A stretch of DNA of 64,000 bases from an uncultured virus (IMG/VR IMGVR_UViG_3300008113_000017) (IMGVR_UViG_3300008113_000017), one strand, 5' to 3'; shown: positions 17,835-50,083, counted from the stretch's first letter. Notes: a model not told the origin generated them from the sequence alone. Program-made: numbers and translations.

Positions 17835-17842
17835 GATACAAA

Positions 17843-20163: not shown

Positions 20164-20173
20164 AAACTCCTAC

Positions 20174-22955: not shown

Positions 22956-23086
22956 TTTGTTTCTCCTTTTCTAATCGGGAATAACTCAATCTAACCACAA
23001 CTCAAACTTATTCGCAAGTTTATTTGTATCCGTGTTTGGATCGGTTTCCAGAGATCTCCAAGCTTCGGCCGGCCATAGCCTAGACA

Positions 23087-23611
23087 CTACCAACTCGGGT
23101 TAGTAGTGTCTAGGGCTAGCAACCACTCAACAAAGTTAGGGTTGAACAGAACTAACTCGTGTCGCTTCTCACGCATTAGGTCAATCGCTTCTTGGACTTG
23201 GTATCCGTCAAGCATTAGAACTATCGCCATAAGTAAGCCAGACCTATTTAGACCTGCTTGGCAACGGACTAGCACCTTTTCCCCAGACTTCCAATCAGTA
23301 AAGATGTTGTAAGCGATACGCATAAATGCTTTTTCATCAAAGTCAGTATCAGCACTATCAAAGTATCCGTATCTAAACTCTTTTACTAACCAATCAACAG
23401 GGTTAGCGTGAGCATAGAAAGTATAAACGCTATCAAAGTTTCGCTTCTTGATAGAGATTAGGGGTCTATCAAACTCGCAATGCTTATCACCAACTCGGTC
23501 ATCATCATCAGTTCCACCTAGCCAAAGGTTAGGCAGTATCTCACTCCAAAGTTCAGGCTTGGTGAACTTCTTAGTTTTTGCTTCGTCATAAGATTTTTCG
23601 TAGTTATTCAT
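23087..23611 (-). CDS. Dual-specificity/tyrosine phosphatase-like protein
   Basis: Cx5R loop VLVRCQAGLNRSG; SEILPNLWLGG; NPNFVEWL. Confidence 0.9.
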   Translation of the reverse strand: MNNYEKSYDEAKTKKFTKPELWSEILPNLWLGGTDDDDRVGDKHCEFDRPLISIKKRNFDSVYTFYAHANPVDWLVKEFRYGYFDSADTDFDEKAFMRIAYNIFTDWKSGEKVLVRCQAGLNRSGLLMAIVLMLDGYQVQEAIDLMREKRHELVLFNPNFVEWLLALDTTNPSW

Positions 23612-24026
23612 TTTGTCCTTTCACTAACTACAACCTAAATACTATTTGATTTATTCCCGAGATTAGAAATAATTTTGGATCGTGTTTAGTCAAACTCCCG
23701 AATAGATTTTGACTTGTTAGCCAAGCGTGTTCTTGCTCGCTTGCTTCGCTTATCAGCGTGAACGCCACTAGCGTTAGAGCGTGAACGCTCACGCAACATA
23801 ATCTCCAACGCCAAAGCTTCGGCATTACGCCTTGCCTTATTAGCCTTGTTCATTTTCATTCCTTTCCCGAATGGCAGACACTCTAATCCTATCAGTTAGG
23901 GCAGACATAGCAAGTGGCGTGTCGCGGCCACAGATCAACCGGCAGAGATCTCTACCGGATCTCCCGGCCGGTAGAGATAATCCCCCTGGCGAATGATCCA
24001 GGGGGATTTTCTAAGTCGGTGGCAGA

Positions 24027-24239
24027 TTAGATGTAATCGCTAAACGCTAGCAAAGGGTCAAAGGGTTCTGGCTTTTTCTTTACTCGCATTTTCTCAACAT
24101 AATCGCTGTCTTTCCATTGCTCGGCTCCACAAGACGGACAAAGTAGTTCACCCGTTCTAGTTAGCGATTGCTCCCCGTAGAAGTGTCCACAAGCAACACA
24201 ATCAAAGATGTAGATGTAGTGTTTTCTAAACCCGAACAT
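24027..24239 (-). CDS. Zinc-ribbon small protein
   Basis: CVAC...CPSC; GAAAGGAAA RBS. Confidence 0.6.
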   Translation of the reverse strand: MFGFRKHYIYIFDCVACGHFYGEQSLTRTGELLCPSCGAEQWKDSDYVEKMRVKKKPEPFDPLLAFSDYI

Positions 24240-25809
24240 TAGTTTCCTTTCCTAGTAGTTTTCGTTTAGGTATTCCATAAGTTCAGTATAACTCTTTCCA
24301 AGAGAAATCAAACTAATAAGTTGCTCATCCATAGCAAGTAAGTTTATGTCTATCAAGCTCTCACCCGAAAGCATAAGTAAGATTTTACCTACTGCTCCAA
24401 TTCCCATTTCAGTTCCTTTCCAGAGAATTCCAGCAATTCGTTTTTCTGCTCATCGGTGAGCATAGCAAACGCCATACCAGCAAGATACGCATAAGCGTTA
24501 TCCTCTTTATCAGTTTTACCTGTCCTGATTAGGTTGTCGATAATTTGTTTTGCTAAAGTATCCATTTGGTTCCTTTCTTATTCGTTGTCTAGTTTATCAG
24601 GTTCATCGTAGTTATCGTGCCAGATTTCATCTGGTATCGCCCAAATAGTTTCTAACTCCATAAGTCGCTGGTTCAGCACTCTTAGGGTTTTGTTTTTTGG
24701 TTTTTCTAGCCAAGTTGGATCGTTTGTTATGTCGCTGATTACTGCCTTGTAAGCGTCTGCTAGTTCCAAGGTTGTTTCCTTTCATCCGTGTATCTAAACA
24801 TTACCACATTTGATTATTTTACAAAGTTTAGATCGATCGGTGTTGATTATTTTTTTCTTTTCTTTTTATCGCCAATTGCGACAATAATATCAACTTCGTA
24901 GAAGCGTTCTACAACTTCTCTTGCTGTTTCCCAAGTAGATAGTTCGATGTAAGTTCCATTGTGCATTTCCACAAGTTCATCAGCAAGGCGTTCTAGTAGT
25001 TCATCGCTACTTAGGTGTTTTACATACTTAGCCATTAGTTAGTTTCCTTTCGGGATTAGGGGTTTCAGTTTATAGCAAACTTGCGACATTAGGCAAGATT
25101 TATTCCGGCAAGTCTGGATCAAATTTGTAAAGCTTCTTTACTCCGGATTAGTCTGCTTCTTTAGAACTCTAACTCTCCGGCTAAGTCTAAGGTTAGGTTG
25201 GAATGGAATTAGTCCGGCGGCCATCGCCAGGTACACAAGTTCGTAAAGCTTCCGTGTCTGGAACTTGTCTAGTTCAGCGATCTGTTCAGGCGTTAGTTTA
25301 GTTCTCACTCTTGCTCACTCTCGTCAATAGGAAACGCTTGTCTAAACGCTTCATCTACTTCGGGGTCAAAGAGCCACTCCAAGAAACCCCTAACACCACT
25401 CTCGGTGTTCAGGTCAAACTTAGGGTTCAGTAGTGGGTTCTGGTCTGGGTCTGGGATTTGATTAGTCATTTACTTCCTTTCAGTAAATAGAACCAAGTTT
25501 ATTTAGGATTTATTCCCGATTTGGATTTTATTTTTCAGTTGTCGCAACCTAATCCGTGTTGTCCCGTGGGTCTTACACCACTTCGGGTGCTTACACGGAA
25601 CTAAGACAAGTCGCCTTTCGCCGAATGGGTCTTTATCTTTCAGTAGTCCAAGGGCAAACAATTCGGCTTTCTCGGCATCGCCTTTTTTCTCAACAAACAT
25701 AACTTTCCTTTCCAATAAAGATAACTCTATCAACCTTGGATTTATTCCCAAGTATTTCAATAAGTTTTGATCGGCCGGCCGGTGAGCTTAGCCACGCAGA
25801 TACGGAAAC

Positions 25810-25935
25810 ACCCCCAACCAGAAAAATAGAGAAAACTAGTTAGGGGTGTTCCTTTATAGGAAAGGAAACTACTGACTTGGTGAAACATGAAAAACCAAGT
25901 CGGGCAAGTGAGATACTCTCGAACTTGCTTATTGC
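25810..25935 (-). ncRNA. Candidate small RNA with anti-Shine-Dalgarno segment
   Basis: Promoter-like sequence upstream, two hairpins (GCAAGT/ACTTGC and GACTTGGT/ACCAAGTC), GTTTCCTTTCC, then a terminator; no minus-strand RBS or ORF. Confidence 0.4.
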
Positions 25936-26019
25936 TAGGTTAGCAAATAAATAACAAAATAGCAACACCAAAAGCAAAAAACCGTAGCAATTTAGCTACG
26001 GTTTTTCGCTGATTTGGAT

Positions 26020-26577
26020 CTATCCAGCAAACGCAGGTTTTTTGTTTGATACCTGATCAATGACCCTTACAAACCGGATCTGACTATTTTTGTAGTCAGA
26101 TAGTGGCTGTATGATCGTCGATCTTGCTCCGTAATGAGCGTTTATGATCTTTCCATTACCAATATAGATTGCTGAGTGGTAGAAGCTATGACTGCCCTTG
26201 TAGGCAAACACAACCACATCTCCAGCTCGGGGGTTGGACACACGCTTACCAATATGCGCTTGCTTATCGGCAGAATGAGGGATTTCTAGGCCGAACCTTT
26301 GGTAGGTCCAGCGAACTAATCCTGAGCAGTCCCAACCCCTTGGAGAAGATCCGGAGAACACATAGGGTGTTACTCCAACCTTAGTCCGTAAGTATTTGAT
26401 GACTTGCTTCATCCGGACAGTATTGCGATGAAGCTTCAACGGATCGTCAGAATACTTATTCGCAACACTATTTTTCTGATCCGAAACAACCATAGGTCTA
26501 TGATCGTATCCGGACGCAGCTGATGAACATCCAACTAGCATTAGGAGCACACTAGTTATTGTGATGAACCTCTTCAT
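26020..26577 (-). CDS. NlpC/P60 cell-wall peptidase, putative lipoprotein
   Basis: TPYVFSG..PRGWDCSGLV, HSAIYIGNGKIINAH; lipobox-like LVGC. Confidence 0.9.
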   Translation of the reverse strand: MKRFITITSVLLMLVGCSSAASGYDHRPMVVSDQKNSVANKYSDDPLKLHRNTVRMKQVIKYLRTKVGVTPYVFSGSSPRGWDCSGLVRWTYQRFGLEIPHSADKQAHIGKRVSNPRAGDVVVFAYKGSHSFYHSAIYIGNGKIINAHYGARSTIIQPLSDYKNSQIRFVRVIDQVSNKKPAFAG

Positions 26578-26767
26578 TTGGCGACCACCTTTCCTTGCGT
26601 TAGTACAGGTCGTTTATTGTCGGGTCTCCCGTCACATTGATCCGAAAACCAATGTGTCTAAATTATAAGGGCCAATTAGATCTACAAACAACATTTTTGA
26701 TCAATTTTTCCGAAAAAATAGCAAAAACCCCTGGAAAACCAGGGGTTCTTACATTGACCGGAGATTT

Positions 26768-26980
26768 CTACTCTGCCGGTGTGTTCTCGGCGATTTGCTC
26801 CTTGAGCCAAGCTAACGCAGCCTGCCGGCCCTTTACTCCGCGACCGAAAGTCTTGTAAGCGTCAATGTTGAGCAACCGGCCCAATGACTTCATAGCCGGT
26901 TCGCCAAAAGTCATCTTTCCGTCTGTGCTGATTTCAAACTCCAAGTTGATAACTAGGATTTCTGCCTGTAGTGAGTTCAT
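26768..26980 (-). CDS. Hypothetical cassette protein
   Basis: GAAAGGAAA RBS; terminator ~26724-26748. Confidence 0.6.
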   Translation of the reverse strand: MNSLQAEILVINLEFEISTDGKMTFGEPAMKSLGRLLNIDAYKTFGRGVKGRQAALAWLKEQIAENTPAE

Positions 26981-27088
26981 TTGATTTCCTTTCGCCTAAC
27001 TACATAAAAAGCCTACACCAAAAACTAAAAAACACAAACATAAAAACATAAATAGATCTGTTTCTATGTTTGTGTCGTTTAGTGTTTG

Positions 27089-27304
27089 TTAGATACTCCA
27101 CGCACCAAAGTCGGTATCGGCAGCGATACGCCTAGCGTTCATCCACGCACTTTCTCCATAAAAGTATGTGACTTTCTTGGTGACTTTGTTTCTAACTTTC
27201 CAATAGTCTTGCTCGAATACCGCAGTTCCATAACTAACTTCCACTAGGTCGCTGTTATAAGCAACTGTCCATTCTTTCACTAGACTTACGCTTGGCTTAG
27301 CCAT
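27089..27304 (-). CDS. Hypothetical cassette protein
   Basis: GAAAGGAAA RBS. Confidence 0.6.
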   Translation of the reverse strand: MAKPSVSLVKEWTVAYNSDLVEVSYGTAVFEQDYWKVRNKVTKKVTYFYGESAWMNARRIAADTDFGAWSI

Positions 27305-27435
27305 TTAGTTTCCTTTCGGTTGATTATCGATAATCTGTGTAAATAGTTTATTGACTACCCTGTCCATATGGCAAGGGTCGCATAGAAAAGATTCGCTCGG
27401 TAAAAGCTCCGTTCGGCAGTCTAAACAGGTTCGCA

Positions 27436-27621
27436 CTATTTCAGCGCCTTTCTAGTCTTTCTTAGCGATACCAATTCCTTTACATCGCTAATGCCGATAT
27501 TGTCTAAGGCAGATACAACTTTGTAAGCAATTTCTAATGACTTGTGTTCGGTTGAGATAGGGGCTAATACTTTGGTCGCAACTTTGGCAACAATCTTGGC
27601 AGTAATAATTTCGGCTAGCAT
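27436..27621 (-). CDS. Hypothetical cassette protein
   Basis: GAAAGGAAA RBS; TGTCTT-N10-TAGTCT promoter. Confidence 0.6.
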   Translation of the reverse strand: MLAEIITAKIVAKVATKVLAPISTEHKSLEIAYKVVSALDNIGISDVKELVSLRKTRKALK

Positions 27622-27741
27622 TTATTTCCTTTCGTAGAATTACAGACTACATTACACCTAAGACATTTCGCAACATTTCACCAAACTAAATTGGATCGTG
27701 TTGTAGAGATCTCTAAGCTTGGTGAGCAGATAGGCTACGGC

Positions 27742-28086
27742 CTATCTGTCGAAAACAGTATCTAAAAACTCTTGCTTTGTATAGACAACTTCTCGATAGA
27801 CAACATTTCCGTCGTCAGCAGAAATAATAATTGCTTCATTGTCGTCAGCGAAAAATCGGTTCTCTCCCACGCTAATACCGAAACTTAGGTTTCCGTCATA
27901 GTTAGCCCGTGTAGAAAACTCATAGAAAAGTTGAGCAGTTAGATAAGCAGGGTCGCCAATTCTATCTGTTCTCGATAAAACATCTACTACGGCAAGCACA
28001 TTATCTGTTCCTGACCAGTGGCCGTAAAGGTGGATAGGTTCGATAAAGTCTTTGCTTGTTACAATAATTCTTGACCTGTCGCCCAT
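27742..28086 (-). CDS. Hypothetical phage protein (MGDRS...LYGHWSG type)
   Basis: RBS plus TGTCTT-N10-TAGTCT promoter. Confidence 0.7.
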   Translation of the reverse strand: MGDRSRIIVTSKDFIEPIHLYGHWSGTDNVLAVVDVLSRTDRIGDPAYLTAQLFYEFSTRANYDGNLSFGISVGENRFFADDNEAIIISADDGNVVYREVVYTKQEFLDTVFDR

Positions 28087-28169
28087 TTGGATTTCCTTTC
28101 ATTCGGGACACTAAAAGACTACACCTAACCTAAGACATTCGCAAGCGTGTCGCAAGCCGGCCGGAGCTG

Positions 28170-28295
28170 GATCAAAAAGTTGTCCCCCGTTAGGCGCTAA
28201 CATAACGGGGGACTAATTTGGTCGTACACCTAAGCAGTTGTTGTGAACATTATTAAGTTATTTATACTTAGATGTTTGTCGCGGTTGCGACTAGA
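28170..28295 (-). ncRNA. Candidate small structured RNA
   Basis: TTGCCG...TAGAGT promoter, GTCGC/GCGAC hairpin, ACATCTAAGT/GCTTAGGTGT stem, terminator; no RBS or ORF. Confidence 0.4.
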
Positions 28296-28386
28296 AAACT
28301 CTACCAAAAATTTTATTTATCGGCAAGCTTAGAGATCTTATGAATAAACCCCCGGTGTATTTCAACCGGGGGTTTACCAGAATTAT

Positions 28387-28611
28387 TTATTCTGGCAATT
28401 CATCCATAACTTGAATTGTGAACAGCAACCCATTCTTCAATTCTGTTTTGGTTGGCATTCTTCCAAACTCTTCTTGGAATGTTTCAATCACTTGGTCAAC
28501 AGCGTGTCCAATAATGTCTGCTGGGGTATCTCCCCAAACTCCGGTAACTTCTTCTTCAGGAACTTCCCTAAAGATAATTGAGTTTGAACCTTGCATTCTC
28601 CAATAACCCAT
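28387..28611 (-). CDS. Hypothetical cassette protein
   Basis: RBS, TGTCTG-N10-TAGAGT promoter, terminator ~28346-28376. Confidence 0.65.
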   Translation of the reverse strand: MGYWRMQGSNSIIFREVPEEEVTGVWGDTPADIIGHAVDQVIETFQEEFGRMPTKTELKNGLLFTIQVMDELPE

Positions 28612-28752
28612 TTTGATTTCCTTTCGTTAGGTTATGTATAAACTCTACACCATACCCCAGACATTTCAAGTATTTATTTACAGATCTCTAAACAGCTTCG
28701 GTAAAGACTAACCCCCGATAAACTATCGGGGGTTAGGTAAGGTCTAAACAGA

Positions 28753-29007
28753 TTAGGCGATTTGGTTCTGCCAATACTCTCTAATCTTTGCGATTTCTTT
28801 CGCTTCTGCTTCTTTCTGCTCTCTCATTTCTGCTTCGTGAGCATTACAGACAATAGTAGCCATTAGGTCAATAGCGAAAGGGCTAGCCATTTTATCGGTA
28901 AGAATATAGTCAATCTGCTTTACCAAACTCTCGATTTCGTAAACTGCCTTTGGCTGAACTGAGTAGTGTGAAGCGATTGCCATTACTAGTTTCTCTTTTA
29001 GTTCCAT
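28753..29007 (-). CDS. Hypothetical cassette protein
   Basis: GGAAAGGAAA upstream; terminator ~28710-28735. Confidence 0.6.
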   Translation of the reverse strand: MELKEKLVMAIASHYSVQPKAVYEIESLVKQIDYILTDKMASPFAIDLMATIVCNAHEAEMREQKEAEAKEIAKIREYWQNQIA

Positions 29008-29189
29008 GCTCGGTGTTTCCTTTCCGTAGTTTCTGGCTTTCTGCCATTACCTAAATACTAGCATACCCATACGGAAACTTGTCAAGGTTTTTATAAATAT
29101 TTTTTGGCGTGTCTATTGGATCAGGATCAAGTTAGCATCCGGATCAAGATCTGAACCGGCCGGTGATCCGTGAAGCTGGCCAGAAACAA

Positions 29190-29410
29190 CAAACCCCCTG
29201 CGTCTCCGCAAGGGGTTATGTAGTGAATAGGTGGATTGCGTTTTACCACCAGTGCCTAGTCAATTCGGTTCTCATAGATCCGCTTTTGAGCACACCCGCC
29301 CTTTACCCGCTAAGGTGAACCGCTAAGTTCAGGCGTTGCCTTGTCTGACCCATTTGACGTTTCAGACTATTCAGCCATACTCCAAGTTTCCTGTCGGAAC
29401 CTTGTTATCT
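29190..29410 (-). ncRNA. Candidate multi-stem non-coding RNA (~210 nt)
   Basis: TTGCGG-17-TACTAT promoter, GACA-loop hairpin, TGAATAG/CTATTCA closing stem with several internal stems, terminator; no RBS or ORF. Confidence 0.55.
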
Positions 29411-29476
29411 CAATAGTATATGAAACAGGCATTTACCGCAAATCAAGACACGCTAATTTGATAACAAATTTATAAC

Positions 29477-29616
29477 GGATCTGCAGCCCTGATCAGCTTC
29501 GGATCTAGCCTGGTAGATCCGGCTAGGATCTCAGCTTAGGATCCAGCTCAGCTGCTCCGGAGGATCCGGCCGGCCAGGATCATTGGACAGATCTAAATTT
29601 AGCTTCCCCCCGATCC
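29477..29616. repeat. Polylinker-like cluster of 4-bp palindromes
   Basis: 10 GATC, 5 AGCT, 4 CCGG and 2 GGCC in about 140 bp. Confidence 0.9.
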
Positions 29617-29666
29617 ATAAAGTAAACCCCTAGTACTTTGTACTAGGGGTTACTTCGGCAGATTAC

Positions 29667-30038
29667 TTATTCGCCACGCTTACGGGACATCAACATCCCG
29701 AGCATTCCAACCATAGCCAACCAGTCCAGTCCTTCATTGGTAAGTCCAGTTGGTTCACCTTCGGCAGTAATGCCACCAGTAAATACGATAGTTCCAGCGA
29801 TAGGGTGTGGATTTTCCAAACAATCAAACGCAACAGCGTAAGCGATAGTTCCAACAGGGTTGATTGGTAAGTTGTGGATTAGTCCTTCTTCATTGACCCA
29901 CATAGTTACCATAGGGTTTAGTCTAACCATTTCCACATAGCCACCAACTTTGTCCTTCATAACTTCATACCAGTCGGTAGATAGTTGTAGTTCGGTTGGT
30001 TCTAGTTCGGTGTTTGTTACAACTGCTAAGTTACTCAT
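29667..30038 (-). CDS. DUF3846-like protein
   Basis: VGGYVEMV...MWVNEEGLIHNLPINP...IAGTIVFTG. Confidence 0.75.
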   Translation of the reverse strand: MSNLAVVTNTELEPTELQLSTDWYEVMKDKVGGYVEMVRLNPMVTMWVNEEGLIHNLPINPVGTIAYAVAFDCLENPHPIAGTIVFTGGITAEGEPTGLTNEGLDWLAMVGMLGMLMSRKRGE

Positions 30039-30146
30039 TTGATTTTCCTTTCCGTGAGTAGTTCCAGTTTATAGCACGCCAGCGACATTTGGCAACATTT
30101 ATTTTCCGTGTCGCTAACAGATCTCTAGCCTAAGCTAAGCGAGCGA

Positions 30147-30401
30147 TTACTCGCCTAGTTCTTTTAGTTCTTTTTGTAGTTGGTCAAGTTCGCTTTTGAT
30201 TGTTAGGGCGTATTCTTTGTTGGCTCGTAGCCTTGTAATAATGTTGTCCAAGTCCATAGATAACTTTGCTAACTGAGTATCATCGGTAGGGTCGATGTTT
30301 CTAATCTGGGTAATGATACCTTCCATTAGCGACAAGATACCTACGCCATCAAGTCTAACTTTTTTGATTTTCTCATTTAGTTCTGCTAAACGCTCTTGCA
30401 T
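30147..30401 (-). CDS. Coiled-coil cassette protein
   Basis: GAAAGG RBS; TGTCGG-N10-TAGTAT promoter at 30429-30450. Confidence 0.65.
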   Translation of the reverse strand: MQERLAELNEKIKKVRLDGVGILSLMEGIITQIRNIDPTDDTQLAKLSMDLDNIITRLRANKEYALTIKSELDQLQKELKELGE

Positions 30402-30458
30402 TTTTTACCTTTCGTGGTTGATAACTTCATACTACTAATAACTGCCGACATTACAAGT

Positions 30459-30698
30459 TTATTCCCAAGATTTTCTAGAAATAATCCGGACAAACTTTTC
30501 TCCCCGGTCATTGATCATTTCGGCCAGGTCGTAATCATCTCCGGTAAAGATTCGGCCAATTCCATCCGGGCTATAGAAATGAATGGTGCAACCGGGCAGA
30601 CAATAAATAACTTCGGTGTTCCATTTCTCGTAGTCGCCGGCGTCAAGCTGGTCATCGTCTAGAACTAATGCAATGTTTGGTGATTTGTGATTATTCAT
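30459..30698 (-). CDS. Hypothetical protein
   Basis: GAAAGGAAA RBS; TGTCTG-N10-TAAGAT promoter. Confidence 0.55.
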   Translation of the reverse strand: MNNHKSPNIALVLDDDQLDAGDYEKWNTEVIYCLPGCTIHFYSPDGIGRIFTGDDYDLAEMINDRGEKFVRIISRKSWE

Positions 30699-30793
30699 AA
30701 TTTCCTTTCGTCAATGAAATCTTACCAGGGCCGGCAGACATTCGGCAAGAATGAAACCCCGCCACACGATCTCTGGCGGGGTTTATTCAAACT

Positions 30794-30991
30794 TTATTCT
30801 TCTTCTTCTTCTTCTTCTTCTTCTTCTTCTTCTTCAACTTCTTCAACTTCAATACTTTCAACGCTGTCGTATTCAAGTTGAGGGTCATCTCCGTAGTAAG
30901 AAGACCAAGCCAGTTCTTCGGCTTCGGCTTCGGTGTTGGCTTCAATTTCGCCTGAATAATTTACTTGGATTTTTACATAGAACTTTGGCAT
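30794..30991 (-). CDS. Very acidic small protein with poly-Glu tail
   Basis: GAAAGGAG RBS; (GAA)n run; terminator ~30754-30784. Confidence 0.7.
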   Translation of the reverse strand: MPKFYVKIQVNYSGEIEANTEAEAEELAWSSYYGDDPQLEYDSVESIEVEEVEEEEEEEEEEEEE

Positions 30992-31155
30992 TTGCCTACT
31001 CCTTTCCCGAGTGGTTTCAGTTTAGCGTAGTTTTTTATTTTTACGCAAGTTTATTTTGAATTATTTTTTGGCGTGTCTTCCAGAGATCTTTCAGCTGCAA
31101 TTAGTTACCGGGGTAACTAATTTATGATCCGCGGAGCTCCCCCGAAACTGCCTAA

Positions 31156-33507: not shown

Positions 33508-33536
33508 CTATCTACCACAAACTGAAAGGTTGCCAA

Positions 33537-41516: not shown

Positions 41517-41659
41517 AACTAGTCCTTTCACTAGTGAATACCGTATCACTCTACCAAATACCCATGACATTTGTAAGAACACGCCGACAAAAGATCTGCC
41601 CGCGTAATCTTAGCTGGCCGGATCGTGCCGGCAGATTTCTCCACCGGCACTCGCCGAAA

Positions 41660-42166
41660 TCACCAACTACTCTGGTAATAAAAATCCCAACCATGAAGCC
41701 CACTTGTTTCAAACTTCGGGTTGTTCAAAATCCGTTCCAAGATAGCGATAGTGTCGTCAATCTGCTCGTAATACCACTCGTCATACTCGGTAGAGCCAAA
41801 GAAAAATCCACTTTCACTCGGCAACAAATCACCTGCTAGTGATTTATCAACGCTGATTTGCTGGCACAAAGTTAGTAGTTCAACTAACTTCTCTCTTTCA
41901 AAAAAGTATTTACCGCAGTCATCAACTCCCTCTTGGACATTATCAACAAACCACTTATGGATTTGATTTGCTTTACGCCAATAACCAACTTTGGCGTGTA
42001 GTTCCACGCTTGGAAAATCTTGGCAGACTTCTTCCAAACCTAAACCAACAGCACCAATAATCTCGGTAAAGGCTGGCACAGGCGTTCTTACAACCTGCTC
42101 GTTCTCTCTTGAATAATCCACGCCTGAAACATACTTTCTGGCGTATAAATACATGTCTAGTCCCAT
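41660..42166 (-). CDS. Conserved phage early protein (MGLDMY...YWRKANQIHKWF family)
   Basis: MGLDMYL, YWRKANQIHKWFV, LLP..GFFFGS.EYDEWY, YYQSSW. Confidence 0.8.
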   Translation of the reverse strand: MGLDMYLYARKYVSGVDYSRENEQVVRTPVPAFTEIIGAVGLGLEEVCQDFPSVELHAKVGYWRKANQIHKWFVDNVQEGVDDCGKYFFEREKLVELLTLCQQISVDKSLAGDLLPSESGFFFGSTEYDEWYYEQIDDTIAILERILNNPKFETSGLHGWDFYYQSSW

Positions 42167-42335
42167 TTGGATTTCCTTTCGTTAGGGATAGTAAAAGTAT
42201 AATGGTCGGCACAGACATTTCACAACATTTCACAAAAAAAGTTTCGCGTGTTTGGATCATGTTTCGCAGCTACGGTTAGCCTGGTCGAAGCTCCGGTGAG
42301 CTCCGGTCCGGCTCGCCAAGATCTCGGGATAGACA

Positions 42336-42372
42336 AATCCCCCTACAGGAAAGGAAGAAGTGTAGGGGGATT
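42336..42372 (-). terminator. Terminator hairpin with CTTCTTCCTTTCC loop
   Basis: AATCCCCCTACA / TGTAGGGGGATT arms. Confidence 0.75.
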
Positions 42373-42397
42373 CTCGTCATTCGGTTAGACCGAAAGT

Positions 42398-43069
42398 TTA
42401 TTCATCGGTCGGTTTAGCAAACTTCTCAAAGTCGGCACGCATCTCACTCTCACCGATAACTCGGTTAGGGTCGTTGGTGTCTCTCGGGCAGTCTTCATAC
42501 CACTCTTCTTCATCGTCAAAGTGGCTACACACACAACCATCTACATCGTCTTTCGCAACATAGTCAGCGTGAGAGTTCGGGATGTCCCAAGAATGAGTTT
42601 CTTCTACCTCGCCGTTCTCGCCGACATAAGTAGAACCCCACCCCTGTTCTTCTTCGCACCAGAACTCAAAGCGTAGTTCGGGGTGTTGCTCAACCATCGC
42701 ACTCATTACAGGCTCGGGGATACTCCACGCCGTATTGTAAGAGATACTAATACTTCCAGTTGTGATGTCTTCCTTGCCGATGTAGGCATCACACGCATCC
42801 CACTTAGTTCCCCAGTTGGCAACATTCCAGTTATACCAGTTCCCACTAGTATCCCCCATTGACTTTCCATCAGCGTATCCGTGAATACCAAAGTATTCAC
42901 CACTATCTACGATGTCTTGACTTGGTGATACAAAGTTCCAGAAAGAGAAGTATTCATCACTCATCTTGCCGTCTTCTTGTGGTCGTGGTTGTGTTGATTT
43001 CTTGATAAAGGTTTCAAGGTCTTCTACCTTGCCTGTAATCTTTACAGATGAATAAACCCAGTTTGGCAT
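42398..43069 (-). CDS. DUF1281/YubB ferredoxin-like domain protein
   Basis: MPNW...NWYNWNVANWGTKW...YNTAWSIP. Confidence 0.8.
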   Translation of the reverse strand: MPNWVYSSVKITGKVEDLETFIKKSTQPRPQEDGKMSDEYFSFWNFVSPSQDIVDSGEYFGIHGYADGKSMGDTSGNWYNWNVANWGTKWDACDAYIGKEDITTGSISISYNTAWSIPEPVMSAMVEQHPELRFEFWCEEEQGWGSTYVGENGEVEETHSWDIPNSHADYVAKDDVDGCVCSHFDDEEEWYEDCPRDTNDPNRVIGESEMRADFEKFAKPTDE

Positions 43070-43443
43070 TTGATTTCCTTTCGTTAGCCGTAGTAAGAGT
43101 TTAGCGAAGTTATTATCTCAACGCAAGTTTATCGAGCTAAATTTTTACTCGCCGTCGTCGTCTTGATCAGATAGACAAGTGCAATCAGCCGGGTATCGCT
43201 CTAAACAGATCTCGCACTGAGTTCCGCAGGCCACACATAAGCAGTTCAGCTCCATCACCGGCTCCTATTCTTCTAACTTCCCACCGAGCATCGAGTAAAC
43301 AATTGAATACGCATCCATCGCGCCTTCAAGATAACTAGCAGTATCATCATCGCCTTCTTCAAGAGCAGTAAGCGATAGTTCTTCCATCTCGTCAATCCGG
43401 ATTTCACAGAACTCTTTTAGTTCTTCGGGTGTAGCAGGGAGCA

Positions 43444-43800
43444 TTACGCCCCCTGCCCGAACTCGTCAGGTCTTCCAATGAAGTTCCAAGTGATAGTGTC
43501 GTCATCTTCTTCCACCTTTTCCCACATTTCAGCAATGTTGTCGTCAATGGCGATTTGGACAAACTTGGCGAGTTCCACGCCATCAGGGTTGCCAATTTTC
43601 TTGCTAATCTCAACGCAGAGTTCAGCGAGCATAGCCATTGGTGGAGTTGATAACTTCTTGCCAGCGTGGTCGCTTAGCACAAACAGAACACTAGCAACTA
43701 GGGTAGCAAGAACTTCTGCCCCATCATCAGTATTCCTGACCAACTCAATAGGGTTGGTGAATTCATCGTTCTCGTGGTCGTGGTTCGGGTTATCGCACAT
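43444..43800 (-). CDS. Hypothetical protein
   Basis: GAAGGAAA RBS; TGTCGT-N10-CATAAT promoter. Confidence 0.6.
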   Translation of the reverse strand: MCDNPNHDHENDEFTNPIELVRNTDDGAEVLATLVASVLFVLSDHAGKKLSTPPMAMLAELCVEISKKIGNPDGVELAKFVQIAIDDNIAEMWEKVEEDDDTITWNFIGRPDEFGQGA

Positions 43801-44390
43801 AGGGTTTCCTTTCGTAGAGTGCTTACATAGCGATTATGCCACAGCCCTACGACATTTCGCAACACATTTCACGAAATTCCCATAAATAAATTTATCGTTA
43901 TAAATTCTGATCCACCGGAGTTTATCGAAGCTAATACTGTTTCCGGAAAGTTTCGATCTCCGGAAAGCCGCCTAGACATCTGACGAGTCCGTCAGAAGTT
44001 CTTACCACCCCCCGAACCTACCGGTTTCATGATTGTTCCTGGATCTCCGGAAAGCTCAGCTCAGCTTGATCCAGGATCACCCGTTCCTGGTGGCATATCT
44101 TTTAACAAGCTAGCGGTTAGCTTCGTCAGATGTTACCCCCTCACCGATACACTGCAGCTTTCTACGGTTGCAGCTACAGCACTCCGTTAGAAGTTACCTT
44201 CCCTTTCAGATCTCCGGTCCCCAGGTAACAGGCACTGACCCGTTAGCTCGTTAGCTTCTCACCAACGTCAGCGGTTAAAGATCTCTACATCTAACCTAAC
44301 CCTGACCCTGACCTAGGGCACGCGGTTATTTGATCCACGCTTAGGGCTCGCCGCTTTTTGTTTTCGAAGCTTAGGCTCGCCGATAAAAAA

Positions 44391-44450
44391 TTTCCCCACC
44401 GGGCACTTCATAAACGAAAGGAAAGGAAGTGATAGTGCCCGGTAGGGAAA
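44391..44450 (-). terminator. Long terminator hairpin with CTTCCTTTCCTTTC in the loop
   Basis: TTTCCCCACCGGGCACT / AGTGCCCGGTAGGGAAA arms. Confidence 0.75.
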
Positions 44451-44463
44451 CTTGGCGGTTAGT

Positions 44464-46314
44464 TTAGAACGAGTTTCTCTCGCCCATCTTCGATAGAACT
44501 TCGGAAGCGGTTTGTCCGATAATCTTACTTGCTTCGACAACATTGTTAGAAACTGAAATCAGTTTGGCATCAGTATTCTTCACGATGAAACTAGCACCCG
44601 CAACGGAGTTGTCGTAGCCAATCCATAGAACAGCCACGCCATTACGCTTACACTCGTCTAGCCACTCTTTCGCTTTACGACTTTCAGGGTTAGTGAAGTT
44701 TCCATCCGATACAACGACAAGCAATCTCGCCCCTGTTCCGTAAAGTAAGTTGGACATACCATCTACCGCTTGGAACGCAGTATCGAATTGCTCTGTCCAA
44801 TCACTAGCCGAATACACTTCGACTTCTTCTAGGTGTTGTCCGACAGATAGAGCAGGGAATACATCAGCACCGAAATAGACCATAGCGGTTCTCGCCTGAA
44901 CTCGCCTACCCGCTTCGGATAGAACCCAAGCGGTAGTTGCCATAGGGTTCATGGCAGAACCCATAGAACCCGAGATGTCCACCATCACGCCAATAGTCAG
45001 CGTAGGCTCGTCAGTTTGTTTTCTAGTCTTGGTTTTCCATAACTCGATTGGAGTGTGGATGCCCTTTGATTTTAGAGCCTTGCTCTGAACTAAGGCACGA
45101 CTTCTAAGTTTGCCAGCAGGAACGACTTGGTTATGAACGACAACATCTCTCTCACGATACTTCGCCTTTTCGAGCAACTTGGCAACGAGAACCGCAGACG
45201 ACCTTTCCAACGAAGTTGGTTTTCTTCTCTCGACTAATCGAGAGTTAGTGTTGCCACTTGGTTCACCATCACGCTTTTTGTTTTCGAGAATACGCTTGGC
45301 GATTTTCTTGTTTGTTTCTCTTTGTTTCGCCTGTTTCGCACTCGACCTAACTTCATCCGCCCAATTCTCGGATAACTGTTGCTCGTCAATTTCAGTTTGA
45401 CCAGATAGAGAAGTGTTGTCGGCATCTTCATTTAGAGCATCAACAAGTTTTTTGATTTTGCCCTTGCCACTTTTGCCACGACCTTTTCCAGCTTCGCCAT
45501 CTTCGCCATCTTCGCCATCTTCACTACCGCCACTTGGATAATGGCATCCACCATCGGGTTCTTGTCCAGCATCTTCGGAAAGTTTCTTCACGATACTTTC
45601 CCATCTTCTAGCCAACTCGTAAAGTGGTTCAGCGTTAGCGTGGTCAGCGTGGTTCTGAAACTCGATCCAGACTTCACGAAGTTCTGCCAACCCATCAGCA
45701 CCAATCAGTTCCATCAGAACTGAATTGACCGCAACTACATCTTCGGGTTCGAGAACGCCAGCATCAACTCTCGCAAGTGTTAGACCAGCCAAGTAAGCAC
45801 CAGCACGAACTAGCCCCATGTTTTCGAGTGCCTTATCAAGTTCGGCAAGCACGACTTCGAGAACAGAAACTCGCAGAAACGCTTTCTTATTTGGTTGAGC
45901 AATAACTCCCCACTTCTCAATTCTCGTTTCTTCGAGCAGGTGTAGCGCACCGAACTCGTTTTCATTGAGAACCTTGCTCGCATCTTCGAGTGAGTAGAGA
46001 GAGAACTTGGCGTGGCAACTTTCGTGATAGAGAGTTCCGAACCCCCTAGCGTTATCGTATTGGACATCTCTACTTCTGATGTCGCCAAGATTTTCAGGGG
46101 TAGTTCCATAACCGAAAGATTTTGGAATACATACTTCGACTTCCGAAGTATTAGGGTTGTATCGAGCAGGATTAGGTTGTTCAGTATCGGCAACGAGAAT
46201 AACTAGGTCGTTTCTATCCGACCACTCATTTACCAACTGTCCTAAGTCAGCACCTACTTTGAGCCACTCTTTCGGAGTGGTTGTTTTGATTTCTTCATTT
46301 GAGAAGTGAGCCAT
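44464..46314 (-). CDS. CobT-like VWA protein with N-terminal HExxH-type domain
   Basis: LYHESCH...LLEETRIE; MIDAS VDISGSM; LLVVVSDG. Confidence 0.85.
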   Translation of the reverse strand: MAHFSNEEIKTTTPKEWLKVGADLGQLVNEWSDRNDLVILVADTEQPNPARYNPNTSEVEVCIPKSFGYGTTPENLGDIRSRDVQYDNARGFGTLYHESCHAKFSLYSLEDASKVLNENEFGALHLLEETRIEKWGVIAQPNKKAFLRVSVLEVVLAELDKALENMGLVRAGAYLAGLTLARVDAGVLEPEDVVAVNSVLMELIGADGLAELREVWIEFQNHADHANAEPLYELARRWESIVKKLSEDAGQEPDGGCHYPSGGSEDGEDGEDGEAGKGRGKSGKGKIKKLVDALNEDADNTSLSGQTEIDEQQLSENWADEVRSSAKQAKQRETNKKIAKRILENKKRDGEPSGNTNSRLVERRKPTSLERSSAVLVAKLLEKAKYRERDVVVHNQVVPAGKLRSRALVQSKALKSKGIHTPIELWKTKTRKQTDEPTLTIGVMVDISGSMGSAMNPMATTAWVLSEAGRRVQARTAMVYFGADVFPALSVGQHLEEVEVYSASDWTEQFDTAFQAVDGMSNLLYGTGARLLVVVSDGNFTNPESRKAKEWLDECKRNGVAVLWIGYDNSVAGASFIVKNTDAKLISVSNNVVEASKIIGQTASEVLSKMGERNSF

Positions 46315-46443
46315 GATTTTTCCTTTCGTTAGGCTACTAGAAGTTTATAGATAGTTCTAAGTTTCCGCAAGTCCACCAGATCGACAACCGAGCTAATTTT
46401 CACTAGCTCGATTGCCGACTTGGTTTTCTAGGGATAGGACAAC

Positions 46444-47469
46444 CTAGATTTTGGCAGGGCGACAATCTTTTCCGAACACTCGGGTAAAGACATCAGCCAC
46501 GATTGGTCTGTCCATTTCAGGCGAGCAAGCGAGCAAGTTGGCGATTGCCCAATCAGTTCCATAAGACTTCTCAATCTCTCGGAACGCAAGCAACTCTCGG
46601 AATTGTGGCGACCAAGAAGTTTCACCTGAAAGTTGTTTCTTGGCGAGATTTTGACTTGCTGTAATTGCCAAGCGTGGAACGCCCAACTTTTTAGCAAGTT
46701 CCCAATCAGTAGTCATTTCGACTTGTAGCAAGCAACGAGATAACAAGGCTTCTGAAAGACGAACTCCGGGAGCATTAGGGTTGGTAGCACCAACGACATA
46801 GAACCCATCTTTCGCCTTTACAGTTCCCCTTTCGGGATTTTGAGTGATGGTGATTTCTTTACGACCATCCATCAACCCATAGAGAGCAGATAGAACTTTT
46901 GGATCGATTAGTCCAATCTCGTCAATGAGAAGAACTTTCCCTTGCTCGGCAGATTTTACTAACGCACCATCCACCCACTCGAAATCGCCACTTGGAGTTT
47001 GGACATAGCCACCAATGAAATCCGAAAGTTCAGTATCGCCTGAACCGAGAATTGTATAAAGTTCATCCCCGAAACTTGCTTCGACCAATGCTGTCTTTCC
47101 GCAACCCGGGCTTCCATAGAGCAACGCATAGTGTCCAAGTTTTCTACCAAGTCGTAGCACTTCGACATCAGGCATACCTGACCATTGACGAGAGTAGTAG
47201 AAATCACCATTAGGTCTTTCATACTTTTCTAATCCATCTACCATAGGGGCATCCACGACACGAACTTTCTTTGGAGTTTTAGGGGTAGCACTTCTCTTGG
47301 TGAGAGAACTTGATTTGTTAGACCACTTATCGAGAACCGCTTTTGTTTCACTTGATAATGATACTTGCTGTTTGGCATAAGCGAGTAGAGCAGTTGGAAG
47401 TCCAACTTCGAGTGATGAAAGTTTTGATAAATCTTCCATAGTTGTTGTTGATACTTTGTATGTTGGCAT
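46444..47469 (-). CDS. MoxR/CobS/CbbQ-type AAA+ ATPase
   Basis: Walker A GSPGCGKT, WVDGAL, Walker B LLIDEI, GATNP, EALLSR. Confidence 0.9.
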   Translation of the reverse strand: MPTYKVSTTTMEDLSKLSSLEVGLPTALLAYAKQQVSLSSETKAVLDKWSNKSSSLTKRSATPKTPKKVRVVDAPMVDGLEKYERPNGDFYYSRQWSGMPDVEVLRLGRKLGHYALLYGSPGCGKTALVEASFGDELYTILGSGDTELSDFIGGYVQTPSGDFEWVDGALVKSAEQGKVLLIDEIGLIDPKVLSALYGLMDGRKEITITQNPERGTVKAKDGFYVVGATNPNAPGVRLSEALLSRCLLQVEMTTDWELAKKLGVPRLAITASQNLAKKQLSGETSWSPQFRELLAFREIEKSYGTDWAIANLLACSPEMDRPIVADVFTRVFGKDCRPAKI

Positions 47470-47493
47470 TTTGATTTGTCCTATCTTTTCTAA

Positions 47494-47979
47494 TTACGCC
47501 ACGAATAATTCATCAGGGAAGCCAGCTTCTTTTCGAGTTCTAAGAACTCTACGAATTAGCCCCTGTGGAGTGTTGTATTTGCTAATGTCCATAGCATCTT
47601 GGAGTGATACTTCGAGAGTGATAACTTTGCCATCTCTAATCTTCCAATCTCTCTCAATCATGTAAGCAAGTTGAGTTTGGATCGGGGCGAGAACTTCTGA
47701 TGCTAATTGCTGTTTTACATCAGAAGATAGTGTCGTATCGAACTCGTGATTAGTTCCGACAAGTTTGGTATCAGCCACACTTGTCGAAATGTGGTTCATC
47801 TGCCATTGCGCTCTTGGCGACCAATTATTTACAGTTCGCCTAAGCATGGTGTTAGGAACTCTCTTACCATCCACGATTGCTGATGGAGTGAGAAGAACCT
47901 GTGCTGTTTCTTTTCCATTAGTAGATACGAACTCTAAATAGAGAGCCTGACCTACTAACTGACTTTGTGTTTCTTCCAT
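47494..47979 (-). CDS. Hypothetical protein, first gene of the AAA operon
   Basis: GAAAGG RBS; close spacing to the ATPase gene. Confidence 0.7.
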   Translation of the reverse strand: MEETQSQLVGQALYLEFVSTNGKETAQVLLTPSAIVDGKRVPNTMLRRTVNNWSPRAQWQMNHISTSVADTKLVGTNHEFDTTLSSDVKQQLASEVLAPIQTQLAYMIERDWKIRDGKVITLEVSLQDAMDISKYNTPQGLIRRVLRTRKEAGFPDELFVA

Positions 47980-48112
47980 TGGATAACCTTTCGTTGTAAG
48001 TTGGAAGTTGTTATTACCTAATCAACCTTAGCGATTTTTCGTTGGAAGTCAAGTTAGATTTATATAATTCTCAAATATTTTTTCCGGATCTTCTGTTGGC
48101 CTAGATCGATAA

Positions 48113-48454
48113 ATGAACTACTATAGAACTATGTGTTACGCGTGCAGTGATTATGTATATGAAGAAGCTTGTCCTGATGAGTTTCCGGGATGTCAAGGTG
48201 AATGCAGTGGCTTTAGCTGTATGGATTGCTCCGGAAATACTTTGCATCTGAACGAGTTCTATATGGTCCACGACCACGTGTGGGATTCAGTAATCTCCAA
48301 GGCCGAAACAAGGGGAATGATTTGTATTGGTTGCCTTGAGCTTCGACTAGGTCGTCTATTGAATGCAGCAGACTTTACTGATGCCCCAGTCAACAGTGGG
48401 TTCGTTGAGCGATCCCCCAGGCTAATCGACAGAATGACGAGCGAAGATAACTAG
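48113..48454 (+). CDS. Cys-rich hypothetical protein
   Basis: CMDC...YMVHDHVW...CIGCLELRLGRLL. Confidence 0.7.
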   Translation: MNYYRTMCYACSDYVYEEACPDEFPGCQGECSGFSCMDCSGNTLHLNEFYMVHDHVWDSVISKAETRGMICIGCLELRLGRLLNAADFTDAPVNSGFVERSPRLIDRMTSEDN

Positions 48455-50083
48455 TCTTCCACCGGGATTACGATTGGGAATCCTTCCCAAACCACTTCGT
48501 GCTCTTCGTCGTCCTTAGGGTACCCAATGAAATCGTCTCCAATGAGATCTGGGTCTGCATCAATCTCAATCATGACTTCGTCAGGGTCTGCACTCTCTGA
48601 TTCGTAGAGTCCATCCAACTCAATGTTTGTTGCTACCCCATCAATAGTGACGTCCCAGTAAACGCGATACTTATATTTCTTCATAGAGCCAGTTTACTGT
48701 TGCAGGCATCGGAAGTCAAGAGGATCTCCTGGCGGCCGGAAACTTCTCACCAGCTCGTTAAAAGTTATGAAGGCGATCCGGATCTGAGCTCATCAGCTCA
48801 GCTGTTATTTCTTCGTTAAAAGTTTCCTGGATCTATCACGGGCAGCGCACAGTCGCTACATATGAAGTACTCGAGGTCCTCCCCGTCTACGTCTCCCAAC
48901 ACCAGGACACACGGTATGAAGTCTTCCTCGTGATAAGCTACGGCTTCTTTACAGTTCTCACAGAACTCATCGGATCTGAATATGACCAGTCCGGTATCCT
49001 CTGCTAGGTTAGCATCGGTTTCATCGTTAATAATGTGCAGCTCTACTTGTTGCATTTAGTACCTCCAATAAGATACTAATACACCCAGCGGTTAGGCTAT
49101 TTGGACGTGTGCTATACACTCGCCGCTCGATGCTCGCCGTACACTGCAGCGCGTAACTTCTAACGTAGTTTGTTAGAAGCTACCATCCTCTTCACGGTAC
49201 TGATCCGCTCGCCAGACAGACGGTGAATGGTTCTCCTCGACGTCCCGTTTCATAGACTCATCCTCGTACATACGTACAACGTGATAACAAGGGTCCTCGC
49301 CGTTATCGTAGGCTTCGTCTTCCTGAGCTGACGTTGGCAGGCCGTCATGCGGTACACATACCGGTGGTCCTACCCAACCTTCACGCAGGCCGATCTTCAT
49401 CCAGACGTCAAAAGTGATTTCGTTAAAAGTGGTGTCATTCATGAGCTCATCCTAACATGCCTCGCCGTCAAAGTCAACTTACAACCTTGCACAGCGTTTC
49501 GTGAATTGTGCAAGCTCTGCTAGCTCGCCGTTATGTTTAATCCGACCGTAAAACCTTCCCGCGGATTGGGTGAAAATAGTCTTCTCATCAAAGATGATCC
49601 CGATCTCGTAAAGCAGTGCTTCAACTTCTGACGAAGACAGTGATGAGAATCCCAGTCCCATGTAGATCGATTTGTAGTGGGAGTCCCGTTTGTAGACTTC
49701 AAGCACATATTCGACTGGCCGTGCTTCAGGCCGCTTTCGAATCATAATCTCTTTATGTGCTTTCATACCACGCTGTGCAATGGTGAGTGCTGATTGCATT
49801 AGTCGTCCTCCTCATCGATCTCACGTAGAACCTTGAATCCTACATACTCGAGGATGGTTGTTTTTGCCAGCTCGTACTGCTCCTGGTTGTCAAAGTAGAA
49901 ACCAATCCTGTGGTCAACGTCAAAGTTCTCATCAAACACTGCGATGCCATCTCCAATGGCAACTAGAATTTCATGCTCTTCATACATTGGGTGGGCGGGG
50001 TCTTCATACTCTGTAATCATGACGTCGACGTATGTGAGTCGATTGTCAGGGTCGAGCGTGTAATCGTAATCGTAATTTGTCAT
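48451..50083 (-). CDS. Run of small mostly acidic genes (48451..48684, 48816..49055, 49173..49442, 49479..49799, 49799..50083)
   Basis: ORF track; leaderless -10 boxes at 48684 and 49442; GGAGG/AAGGAG RBS at 49055 and 50083. Confidence 0.6.

Follow-up and report, generated by a model that had tools for sequence, protein, structure and literature searches.

Avoidance of palindromes along whole phage genomes was reportedly found by Sharp in 1986 and by Rocha et al. in 2001. The host-takeover module of SPO1, which lies in the terminal redundancy, consists of small early genes in tandem, equipped with strong promoters, terminators and ribosome sites of one type, and to our knowledge it has neither a word-level purge nor site-packed gaps. 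In T5 and BF23 (Tequintavirus), the first-step-transfer (FST) DNA is described as a bounded early region without restriction sites, the rest of the genome being free to have them; its early genes are numerous, small and under host-type promoters, its inner border is repeat-rich and non-coding, and T5-like phages are reported there to be restricted only via sites in the FST DNA (PMC10644984). For Autographiviridae (Murciavirus), sensitivity to restriction-modification is reported to depend on where sites lie in the DNA injected first; this leading region varies and holds many anti-defence genes (PMC12455610). Here we describe a purged segment in an uncultured, virulent-looking freshwater actinobacteriophage, represented by a stretch of 64,000 nucleotides (nt) of the uncultured virus IMGVR_UViG_3300008113_000017 (hereafter the window, meaning this whole stretch), in which an array of small early genes is separated by gaps packed with clusters of short palindromes.

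As in genome-wide avoidance, restriction words are lost here by synonymous change; unlike genome-wide avoidance, the loss is confined to one segment and involves two word classes with different spatial rules, one of them inverted in gaps. The early array resembles the SPO1 module in its layout of genes, promoters and terminators. With T5 and BF23 the segment shares a bounded early region without restriction sites, many small early genes, host-type promoters and a repeat-rich non-coding inner border, its distal edge being non-coding and made up of palindromes and tandem arrays. Unlike the FST DNA of T5, the segment covers 31 kb versus ~10 kb, is stripped of nearly all 4-bp palindromes, includes the terminase operon and shows no sign of a terminal repeat; T5 has no site-packed gaps, and a two-step entry is suggested here by analogy. 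The Murciavirus case resembles ours in that sites in the leading DNA matter and in the anti-defence setting, but it concerns a Type I motif, was tested experimentally and spans a few kb, whereas the present one concerns many Type II-like words over 31 kb, read from sequence (PMC12455610).

Palindromes of the 31-kb segment

Words were counted in the window and in a circular map of 126,546 bp with a guanine-cytosine (GC) content of 43.3%, which was closed by walking overlapping identical or near-identical IMG/VR contigs and joins contigs from several samples. The counts separated two word classes. Nine palindromes (TTAA, ATAT, TATA, ACGT, GTAC, CATG, TGCA, GCGC and CGCG; the nine words) are purged throughout the segment, and four others (GATC, AGCT, CCGG and GGCC; the four words) are purged from early transcription units only and are piled up beside them. 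This split is new, and it shows that something beyond simple cutting acts on GATC, AGCT, CCGG and GGCC. The nine words are nearly gone between ~16.9 and 48.1 kb, from coding sequence as much as from gaps, with a density of 6.6/kb versus 28.2/kb outside, and this is the sole purged segment of the whole map, the minimum outside being 16 per kilobase. Its edges are sharp: at ~17.0 kb the count per 500 bp goes from 13 down to 0, and at ~48.0 kb it climbs from 3 to 15. A chimeric assembly was rejected, the left edge being present in IMG/VR record G001 and three more IMG/VR records and the right edge being spanned by contigs of two runs.

Between 21,900 and 48,810, where our own heuristic gene calls gave 18,238 bp of coding sequence and 8,673 bp of gap, TTAA was seen 6 times versus 149 expected and ACGT 9 times versus 52. 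The gaps alone held 6 TTAA of 54 expected, 5 ACGT of 33, 6 GTAC of 33 and 4 GCGC of 20. Synonymous-codon shuffles ruled out codon use as the cause of the depletion in genes: the nine words numbered 81 versus 319±14 in 53 early (class-I) genes and 5 versus 62±6.8 in the terminase operon, compared with 424 versus 423±15 in six genes outside the segment. The initial annotation of this DNA had pointed to a contrast in the four words between genes and spacers; that contrast stood, but nearly all other 4-bp palindromes, purged from genes and gaps as well, had been overlooked, as had the sharp edges of the purge at ~16.9 and 48.1 kb. The word CCTC/GAGG was likewise depleted on both strands of 21900-48810 (10 versus 61 and 6 versus 36 expected). 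Ribosome sites read GAAAGGAAA instead of GGAGG, which would fit avoidance of a CCTC-type (MnlI-like) word too, and the uniform ribosome site GAAAGGAA, of which there are 35 copies, is free of GAGG.

Over 21,900-48,810 the four words occurred 86 times in coding sequence and 266 times in gaps (odds ratio 6.7, Fisher p = 3.6e-63), ~104 being expected in the 8.7 kb of gaps, so the proposed contrast between genes and gaps was borne out. The gap excess was 2.0-3.6-fold over base composition and only 1.3-1.7-fold over a trinucleotide Markov model. Ranked by gap/gene ratio, the four words took places 2-5 among 136 strand-symmetrised 4-mers, TTAA standing first only through its gene count of 0. GC-rich gaps were rejected as the cause (GC 0.438 in coding sequence versus 0.437 in gaps), and so was a null in which permitted palindromes accumulate, given that CTAG, TCGA and AATT are tolerated yet not gap-enriched. 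No contrast was found outside the segment, with 15.7/kb in open reading frames (ORFs) versus 12.4/kb between ORFs; across the rest of the genome the four words run at ~15 per kb. Defining a cluster as at least 4 sites with neighbours at most 25 bp apart, we found 48 clusters in the window, 40 of them at 17.0-48.8 kb and 8 elsewhere. All 16 clusters listed beforehand were present (e.g. 29478-29615 and 38718-38827), and the 21 sites that had been claimed for 29477-29616 were found within the 138 bp of 29478-29615.

In synonymous-codon shuffles, the four words numbered 39 versus 178±10 in the 53 early genes, 49 versus 52.7±4.2 in the terminase operon within the segment and 250 versus 225±12 in the six genes outside; for CCGG alone, trinucleotide expectation already accounts for most of the gene depletion (29 versus 31). 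Six further ORFs in the array, one of them an NlpC/P60 gene, carry the four words freely (47 versus 31±3.4). The cassette genes had been described as free of sites, which is correct for most early genes, including the three that had been named (23087-23611, 38098-38616 and 42398-43069, with 0 four-word sites), and misses the terminase operon, the NlpC/P60 gene and a few small ORFs, all at normal density. The NlpC/P60 peptidase gene (26020-26577) lies inside the early array with an atypical codon score and a normal four-word density. It holds 4 nine-word sites in the window and 13 in G002, a relative with ~78% nucleotide identity of which 81 kb were covered, and looks like a recent, not-yet-purged acquisition. 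Positions 21200-21346 are coding and contain 18 four-word sites in 147 bp, where GATCCGG-type repeats encode a Pro/Asp/Val/Glu-rich linker of the peptidoglycan-binding protein.

Gap modules and early promoters

The early array is built of units in which cluster, ACACGC box, promoter, GAAAGGAA ribosome site, gene and terminator follow each other in the order that had been proposed; terminator-like hairpins numbered 33 versus 16.7±3.9 in shuffles. Read on the minus strand, a typical gap starts with a terminator hairpin, CCGG/GGCC words (often CCGGCCGG or GGCCGGCC) and AAGCTT or another AGCT word, continues with AGAGATCTCT, GATC[C/T]AAACACGCC and an A/T-rich tract, and ends with TTGCGAAATGTC, 12 nt, TAAACT, ~20 nt, GAAAGGAAA and ATG. 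At 21 promoters, GATC lies at -8 to -15 from the ACACGC box, AGCT at -20 to -30 and CCGG/GGCC further out, and the 100 bp downstream of the box contain 2 GATC and 0 of the other three words. The recurrent pieces of the module are AGAGATCTCT, an operator-like 10-bp palindrome with 9 copies in the segment and none in the remainder of the window, GATC[C/T]AAACACGCC, AAGCTT and the doubled words CCGGCCGG and GGCCGGCC. Doubled words occur inside the segment (CCGGCCGG 10, GGCCGGCC 5 and GATCGATC 3 times), the count outside being 0 for all.

The label 'PafBC-type' given to the early promoters in the initial annotation holds at the level of the motif. The published PafBC consensus is tGTCgg(N10)tA(N3)T, its GTC being recognized around -26 (PMC8635444). 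TGTC-N12-TANNNT occurred 30 times in the window versus 8.9±3.3 in shuffles, 23 of these matches lying on the minus strand before early genes, and 22 times versus 1.8±1.3 on the coding strand of 21.4-48.3 kb. Several phage promoters match the consensus exactly, e.g. 38656-38677, and the spacing is the published one. PafBC-dependent (RecA-NDp) promoters thus share tGTCgg-N10-TANNNT and its spacing with 22 phage early promoters; as characterized in the same source, however, they have no -35 element, whereas the phage promoters carry a -35-like box (PMC8635444). This box, TTGCNA/TTGACA, lies 18 nt before the -10, and TTGCGA, TTGCCA or TTGACA stands ahead of the motif as TTGNNAAATGTC. The phage promoters may depend on PafBC, and they combine a host -35 box with a PafBC-type -26 element. 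Among the papers listed by our searches, none linked PafBC to phage early promoters. With ~20 early promoters bearing the PafBC -26 element, the motif suggests that an abundant lake phage borrows an actinobacterial DNA-damage activator for host takeover. A generic sigma-70 scan was not enriched (24 versus 31.5±6.0), because the phage -10 is TAAACT-like, and the family's own motif was used instead. The motif was also enriched in relatives (G002, 16 versus 1.9; L052, 7 versus 0.5; L035, 5 versus 0.5) and was not enriched in the relative G003 nor in relatives without an early purge. Given that L035 and L052 have TTGACAAATGTC-type promoters and no clusters, we concluded that the clusters are an addition of the window's clade and not part of the promoter type.

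Two units of the array touch on the clusters. Behind the densest cluster lies a gene-free unit of ~260 nt (29190-29450, minus strand) that carries a strong terminator and a promoter to itself (TTGATT...TATACT); its fold is predicted at -89.7 kcal/mol (z = -3.2 versus mononucleotide shuffles), and the unit has no Rfam match and is a candidate small RNA. A 121-bp unit at 33484, comprising a site cluster, an ACACGC box and a promoter, is present in G001 and in contigs of 3 of 4 runs and missing from the window, so that a whole promoter module is a presence/absence polymorphism among natural strains. The early products are often acidic, 30 of 59 having an isoelectric point below 5 and some consisting of 30-42% Asp+Glu, which is compatible with DNA-mimic anti-restriction proteins as a possibility. 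Extremely acidic products are encoded at 30794-30991 (65 amino acids, 42% Asp+Glu) and 32494-32883 (129 amino acids, 31%).

Relatives and possible origins of the gap clusters

From 462 terminase relatives in IMG/VR, 80 loci were kept. Word profiles and purge differ by lineage among them, and many show no word pattern. Only the window's clade (L012-L015 and G002) clusters the four words, with a variance/mean of 3.6-5.0 versus ~1 elsewhere. The pattern had been expected to recur in related phages: it did so within this clade, but other relatives, e.g. G003 (complete, 137.5 kb), L035 and L052, showed no clustering. The same gap module is present in G002. Across 25 orthologous gaps of the window and G002, site counts correlated at r = 0.91 and density was 26.4/kb in both, while the gaps were 59% and the flanking genes 77% identical; alignment of two gaps by eye showed that G002 has insertions of 34 and 48 nt rich in sites. 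The gap density of the four words is about twice the random one and is conserved across ~22% divergence. Most early genes are free of four-word sites in the window as well as in G002. For the terminase the counts are 19 and 33, respectively, with 9 sites in common, and for the VWA gene (1.85 kb) 2 and 2, with 0 in common. The early array is highly mosaic, 17 of 65 genes having no G002 ortholog (blastn E≤1e-10) and 8 only partial matches.

Among the other lineages, L035, L043 and L052 show an early-side purge, GATC being missing on both sides of the terminase as well. L035 is without all four words on both sides of the terminase, L052 is also without CCGG and GGCC, both words are low in L043, and in L043 and L052 AGCT is missing on the early side only. 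In L060, L068 and L069 the four words are missing everywhere and there is no early purge. In G003 the purge extends over 21 kb with a normal block of 4 kb inside it, and the four words are tolerated, unclustered; the block, at map 46-50 kb (L018 -3 to +1 kb around the terminase start; 88%-identity lineage), points to mosaic replacement. DSL-LC01 (L006, 55% GC), a lake metagenome phage, contains 0 TTAA and 0 ATAT in 50 kb versus ~44 and ~51 expected, its other palindromes being normal, and the pattern was not seen in the distant cultured phage Pumpernickel (58% GC). Whole-locus avoidance (<0.15 of expectation) in 56 non-redundant loci affected CCGG in 22, GATC in 18, AGCT in 14, CGCG in 12 and GGCC in 11, and each remaining word in at most 7 of 56 loci. 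This tally indicates that the words packed into the gaps here are those that relatives most often forbid.

We tentatively explain the whole pattern by two superposed layers of selection on short palindromes, an account that as a whole falls somewhat short of probable. Layer 1, which we regard as probable, proposes by analogy with T5, or with the leading region of T7-like phages, that the segment is DNA exposed to host restriction before the phage early proteins act, and the segment-wide palindrome loss would follow from this exposure. The exposed stretch would run from the first early promoter (~48.1 kb) to the repeat-rich border by the terminase operon (~16.9 kb), an order of DNA entry suggested by the same analogy, and nearly every 4-bp palindrome would so have been removed from genes, gaps and the late operon. 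If Layer 1 is true, word statistics alone could mark the part of an uncultured phage genome that faces the host first, and could also show the restriction specificities circulating in the host community. Layer 2 is less secure. A cut in a gap would be harmful, since the gaps still exclude the other nine palindromes; because of this exclusion, and because the late operon in the same segment carries the four words freely, these are probably not cut in this lineage. The hazard of GATC would be lifted by the phage's own Dam-family methylase, while for AGCT, CCGG and GGCC the host may lack the enzymes or host modification may be relied on. Early genes without the four words would then be mostly an inheritance from a fully purged cassette pool, of which L035 and L052, with none of the four words anywhere, serve as example, and the untranscribed gaps from terminator to promoter would have gained dense, fast-evolving modules of these words. 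The gap clusters are best read as fast-evolving, lineage-specific promoter-upstream modules. Our best guess, offered with modest confidence, is that the modules would bind proteins and serve the early promoters as control elements or insulators. Whether the DNA is fully methylated, as on infection, or newly replicated may change how GATC boxes are read, and the Cro/C1-type helix-turn-helix (HTH) protein of the array, whose gene is among the best conserved early genes (89.7% nucleotide identity to G002), is a candidate binder of the palindromic boxes.

Several points weigh against this two-layer account. The status of the segment as first exposed is an analogy, seen on assembled contigs, and the annotated left end of Pumpernickel lies upstream of the endolysin, which in the window would be ~4 kb outside the purge. 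The legacy of the genes is a rough estimate: ~26 new sites per lineage would be expected since the split of the window and G002, versus 8 and 16 unique ones in 11.7 kb. Continuing selection fits the genes equally well, and something would then still punish the four words in early units only. The account does not explain the safety of AGCT, CCGG and GGCC, no cognate methylase having been found (PF00145/PF01555 in G001, G002 and G007; Pfam on ORFs of at least 80 amino acids elsewhere); Dam was the only DNA methylase found, ORFs below 80 amino acids and novel methylase families being outside the scan. A match between modules and regulators is putative, the recurrent longer motifs (palindromes) cover just 105 of 266 gap sites, and no 10-11-bp helical phasing was found between neighbouring sites. 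CTAG, TCGA and AATT, equally tolerated, show no gap enrichment, and the coincidence of the enriched words with those forbidden in relatives is left as chance or as an unexplained link.

Sacrificial cut points, decoys and cut-and-religate shuffling, the three functions that had been suggested for the clusters, are weakened by the data though not disproved, in that the gaps are still purged of the other nine palindromes and the terminase operon carries the four words; with these words probably uncut in this lineage, the base of all three is removed. A restriction alarm, in which cuts at gap clusters spare the cassettes, single-stranded DNA activates PafBC and an anti-restriction burst rescues the genome or its kin, would fit the PafBC motif of the promoters and the activation of PafBC by single-stranded DNA, as described in the source (PMC11804915). 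It would also fit the position of the four words, the family's main restriction targets, which are missing from promoter cores, leaders and early genes and dense just upstream, and headful packaging from the TGATCA array could make the leading ends terminally redundant and expendable. Against this, gap cuts were apparently selected against, the same gaps being purged of other palindromes, and cutting would shred a genome whose terminase operon and late part have a normal density of the four words. The promoter would be lost if a break 60-120 bp upstream were resected, this promoter type stands without any clusters in L035 and L052, and the contig k-mer depths, weak evidence as they come from metagenome contigs, were similar inside the segment and at its right edge (X11, 5.2-6.7 versus 6.74; X14, 6.2-20.4 versus 12.7), giving no sign of a 31-kb terminal duplication. 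Such an alarm appears quite unlikely; a function linked to restriction-modification is compatible with the data, and sacrificial cut points are not the reading that the sequence favours. The clusters might instead be a restriction/modification sensor wired to the host DNA-damage activator, with the words most restricted in the host community set just upstream of PafBC-type promoters: how strongly the anti-defence cassettes fire would then depend on the modification of the entering DNA or on its being attacked, and a doomed genome could disarm the cell for later-infecting kin. We consider this very unlikely. Shuffling of cassettes by cutting and religation through compatible ends has in its favour the mosaic array and natural strains with replaced or missing stretches, but breakpoints fall in genes as well as in gaps (41931, 42796 and 42838), the hybrid half-site words AGCC/GGCT that blunt ends would leave are not among the 20 most gap-enriched words, and the purge of other palindromes speaks against gap cutting; shuffling is extremely improbable.

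The same holds nearly as strongly for decoys, by which clusters and GAGCT/TGATCA arrays would soak up restriction enzymes or attract methylases during early protein synthesis. The very high local density with overlapping words such as GATCCGG and CCGGCC, the arrays of 67 AGCT in 760 bp and the presence of clusters only in a lineage without genome-wide avoidance of the four words speak for them; however, since Type II enzymes turn over, cutting of the decoys would break the genome, methylated decoys bind poorly, the ordered position beside promoters would have no reason, and G003 tolerates the four words without clusters. Decoys are accordingly rated highly improbable. A functionless by-product of mutation tolerated in gaps, arising as scars or slippage such as 4-nt fill-in duplications by Ku/LigD end-joining or microsatellite-like expansion, is unlikely. 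Doubled words confined to the segment, tandem arrays, indel-rich orthologous gaps and the 121-bp promoter unit that is present or absent among natural strains agree with it, and mycobacterial end-joining is said to fill in 5' overhangs (Gong et al. in 2005). Site density per gap is nevertheless conserved between lineages (26.4/kb, r = 0.91), proximal boxes keep their position, the 10 strain indels listed over 20 kb are all single-base with no 4-nt duplication, and gap cutting would still be needed, contrary to the purge of other words there. The GATC-rich clusters could also be secondary Dam-sensitive terminase sites, with virion ends between cassettes and promoter-first entry. A P1-pac-like TGATCA array beside the terminase operon and a phage Dam gene are in line with this (PMC10028697, PMC12707154), as would be early transcription from 48 to 17 kb, the entry direction of last-packaged ends if packaging runs upward from 17.5 kb, and a segment of 24.5% of the map, which would equal about three headfuls of 8% redundancy. 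Packaging signals, however, cover GATC alone (93 of 266 gap sites), just 8 gap GATC stand in a TGATCA context, and we rate them as decidedly improbable.

Terminase edge and other features

The positions of the features are collected in Table 1. At the distal edge of the segment, both GAGCT arrays are made of units of 5 to 12 bp and together contain 67 AGCT in 760 bp; arrays like them occupy the corresponding place in G002 and are missing from G003. Between them, ~1.1 kb downstream of the 3' end of the terminase gene, lies the TGATCA array, in which 17509-17588 holds 5 of the 44 TGATCA of the whole map. By analogy with P1 this array is a candidate packaging site. The pac site of P1 is described as 161 bp with seven TGATCA/G hexamers whose Dam methylation controls cleavage, and P1 is reported to need its own methylase in Dam-negative hosts (PMC10028697, PMC12707154). 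As with P1 pac and the phage Dam (Dmt), a cluster of TGATCA hexamers near the terminase genes is accompanied by the phage's own Dam-family methylase (PMC10028697); unlike P1 pac, the array has 5 hexamers in 80 bp, lies outside the terminase ORF and is flanked by GAGCT arrays, and its cleavage is predicted. The Dam-family gene (PF05869, E = 3.6e-17) is at L105:3670-4152, ~2.5 kb past the window end; this contig and the window agree at 100% identity along 7.1 kb. Neither the complete G003 nor G004, G005 or the 81 kb of G002 yielded such a gene.

Table 1. Features of the purged segment and its edges (window coordinates)
Feature	Position	Strand	Basis
Two copies of a perfect ~22-bp palindrome (GGTTAGGTTAGGCTAACCTAAC-like), 65 bp apart, exactly at the purge edge	16880..16990	.	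read directly
Purged segment (nine words and CCTC/GAGG)	16900..48100	-	sharp edges
GAGCT-based tandem array, 48 AGCT, distal segment edge	17080..17385	.	
GATC array, 5 TGATCA in 80 bp (17509-17588) and four more GATC; candidate P1-like Dam-sensitive packaging site	17487..17615	.	
Second GAGCT-based tandem array	17616..17782	.	
Late-type operon in the purged segment: terminase large subunit, HTH protein (possible small terminase), peptidoglycan-binding protein	18751..21382	-	Pfam Terminase_6N/6C, Sigma70_r4, PG_binding_1
Early array, ~55-60 small genes, most with own promoter, GAAAGGAA ribosome site and terminator	21900..48100	-	gene calls, shuffles
Cro/C1-type HTH protein	22725..22955	-	Pfam HTH_26/HTH_3
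Densest gap cluster, 21 sites in 138 bp, ahead of the candidate small RNA promoter	29478..29615	-	
Early promoter core example, TGTC-N12-TAAACT, after TTGCGAAA	37462..37483	-	
Typical ordered module: GGCC, AAGCTT, AGAGATCTCT, GATCCAAACACGC	37512..37550	-	
Gap cluster, 15 sites, partly GGCC/CCGG terminator stem; then GATCCAAAACACGCC and a promoter fitting tGTCgg-N10-TAAACT exactly (38656-38677)	38718..38827	-	
AAA+ (MoxR/CobS-like) and VWA (CobT-like) pair near the array head, almost palindrome-free	44464..47469	-	

Record G001 equals the window sequence except for the 121-bp insertion at window position 33484. Near-identical DNA was present in 20 runs of 17 studies, 11 labelled lake/freshwater and 8 'fungus metagenome', and 10 may be the source sample. 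No close DNA match was found in the phage collection by megablast, and no tRNA or Rfam family was found within the window. The portal protein (13791-15551, minus strand) is 73% identical to that of DSL-LC01 and 59-65% to those of large Microbacterium phages, and the gene order terminase, endolysin, AAA+/VWA pair is common to the window and DSL-LC01, for which Actinomycetia are given as predicted host (PMC10611076). A single ORF of 3,341 amino acids, presumably structural, occupies 2547-12572 on the minus strand, and upstream in G001 there are more giant ORFs, of 3,136, 1,690, 1,584 and 1,569 amino acids, presumably structural as well.

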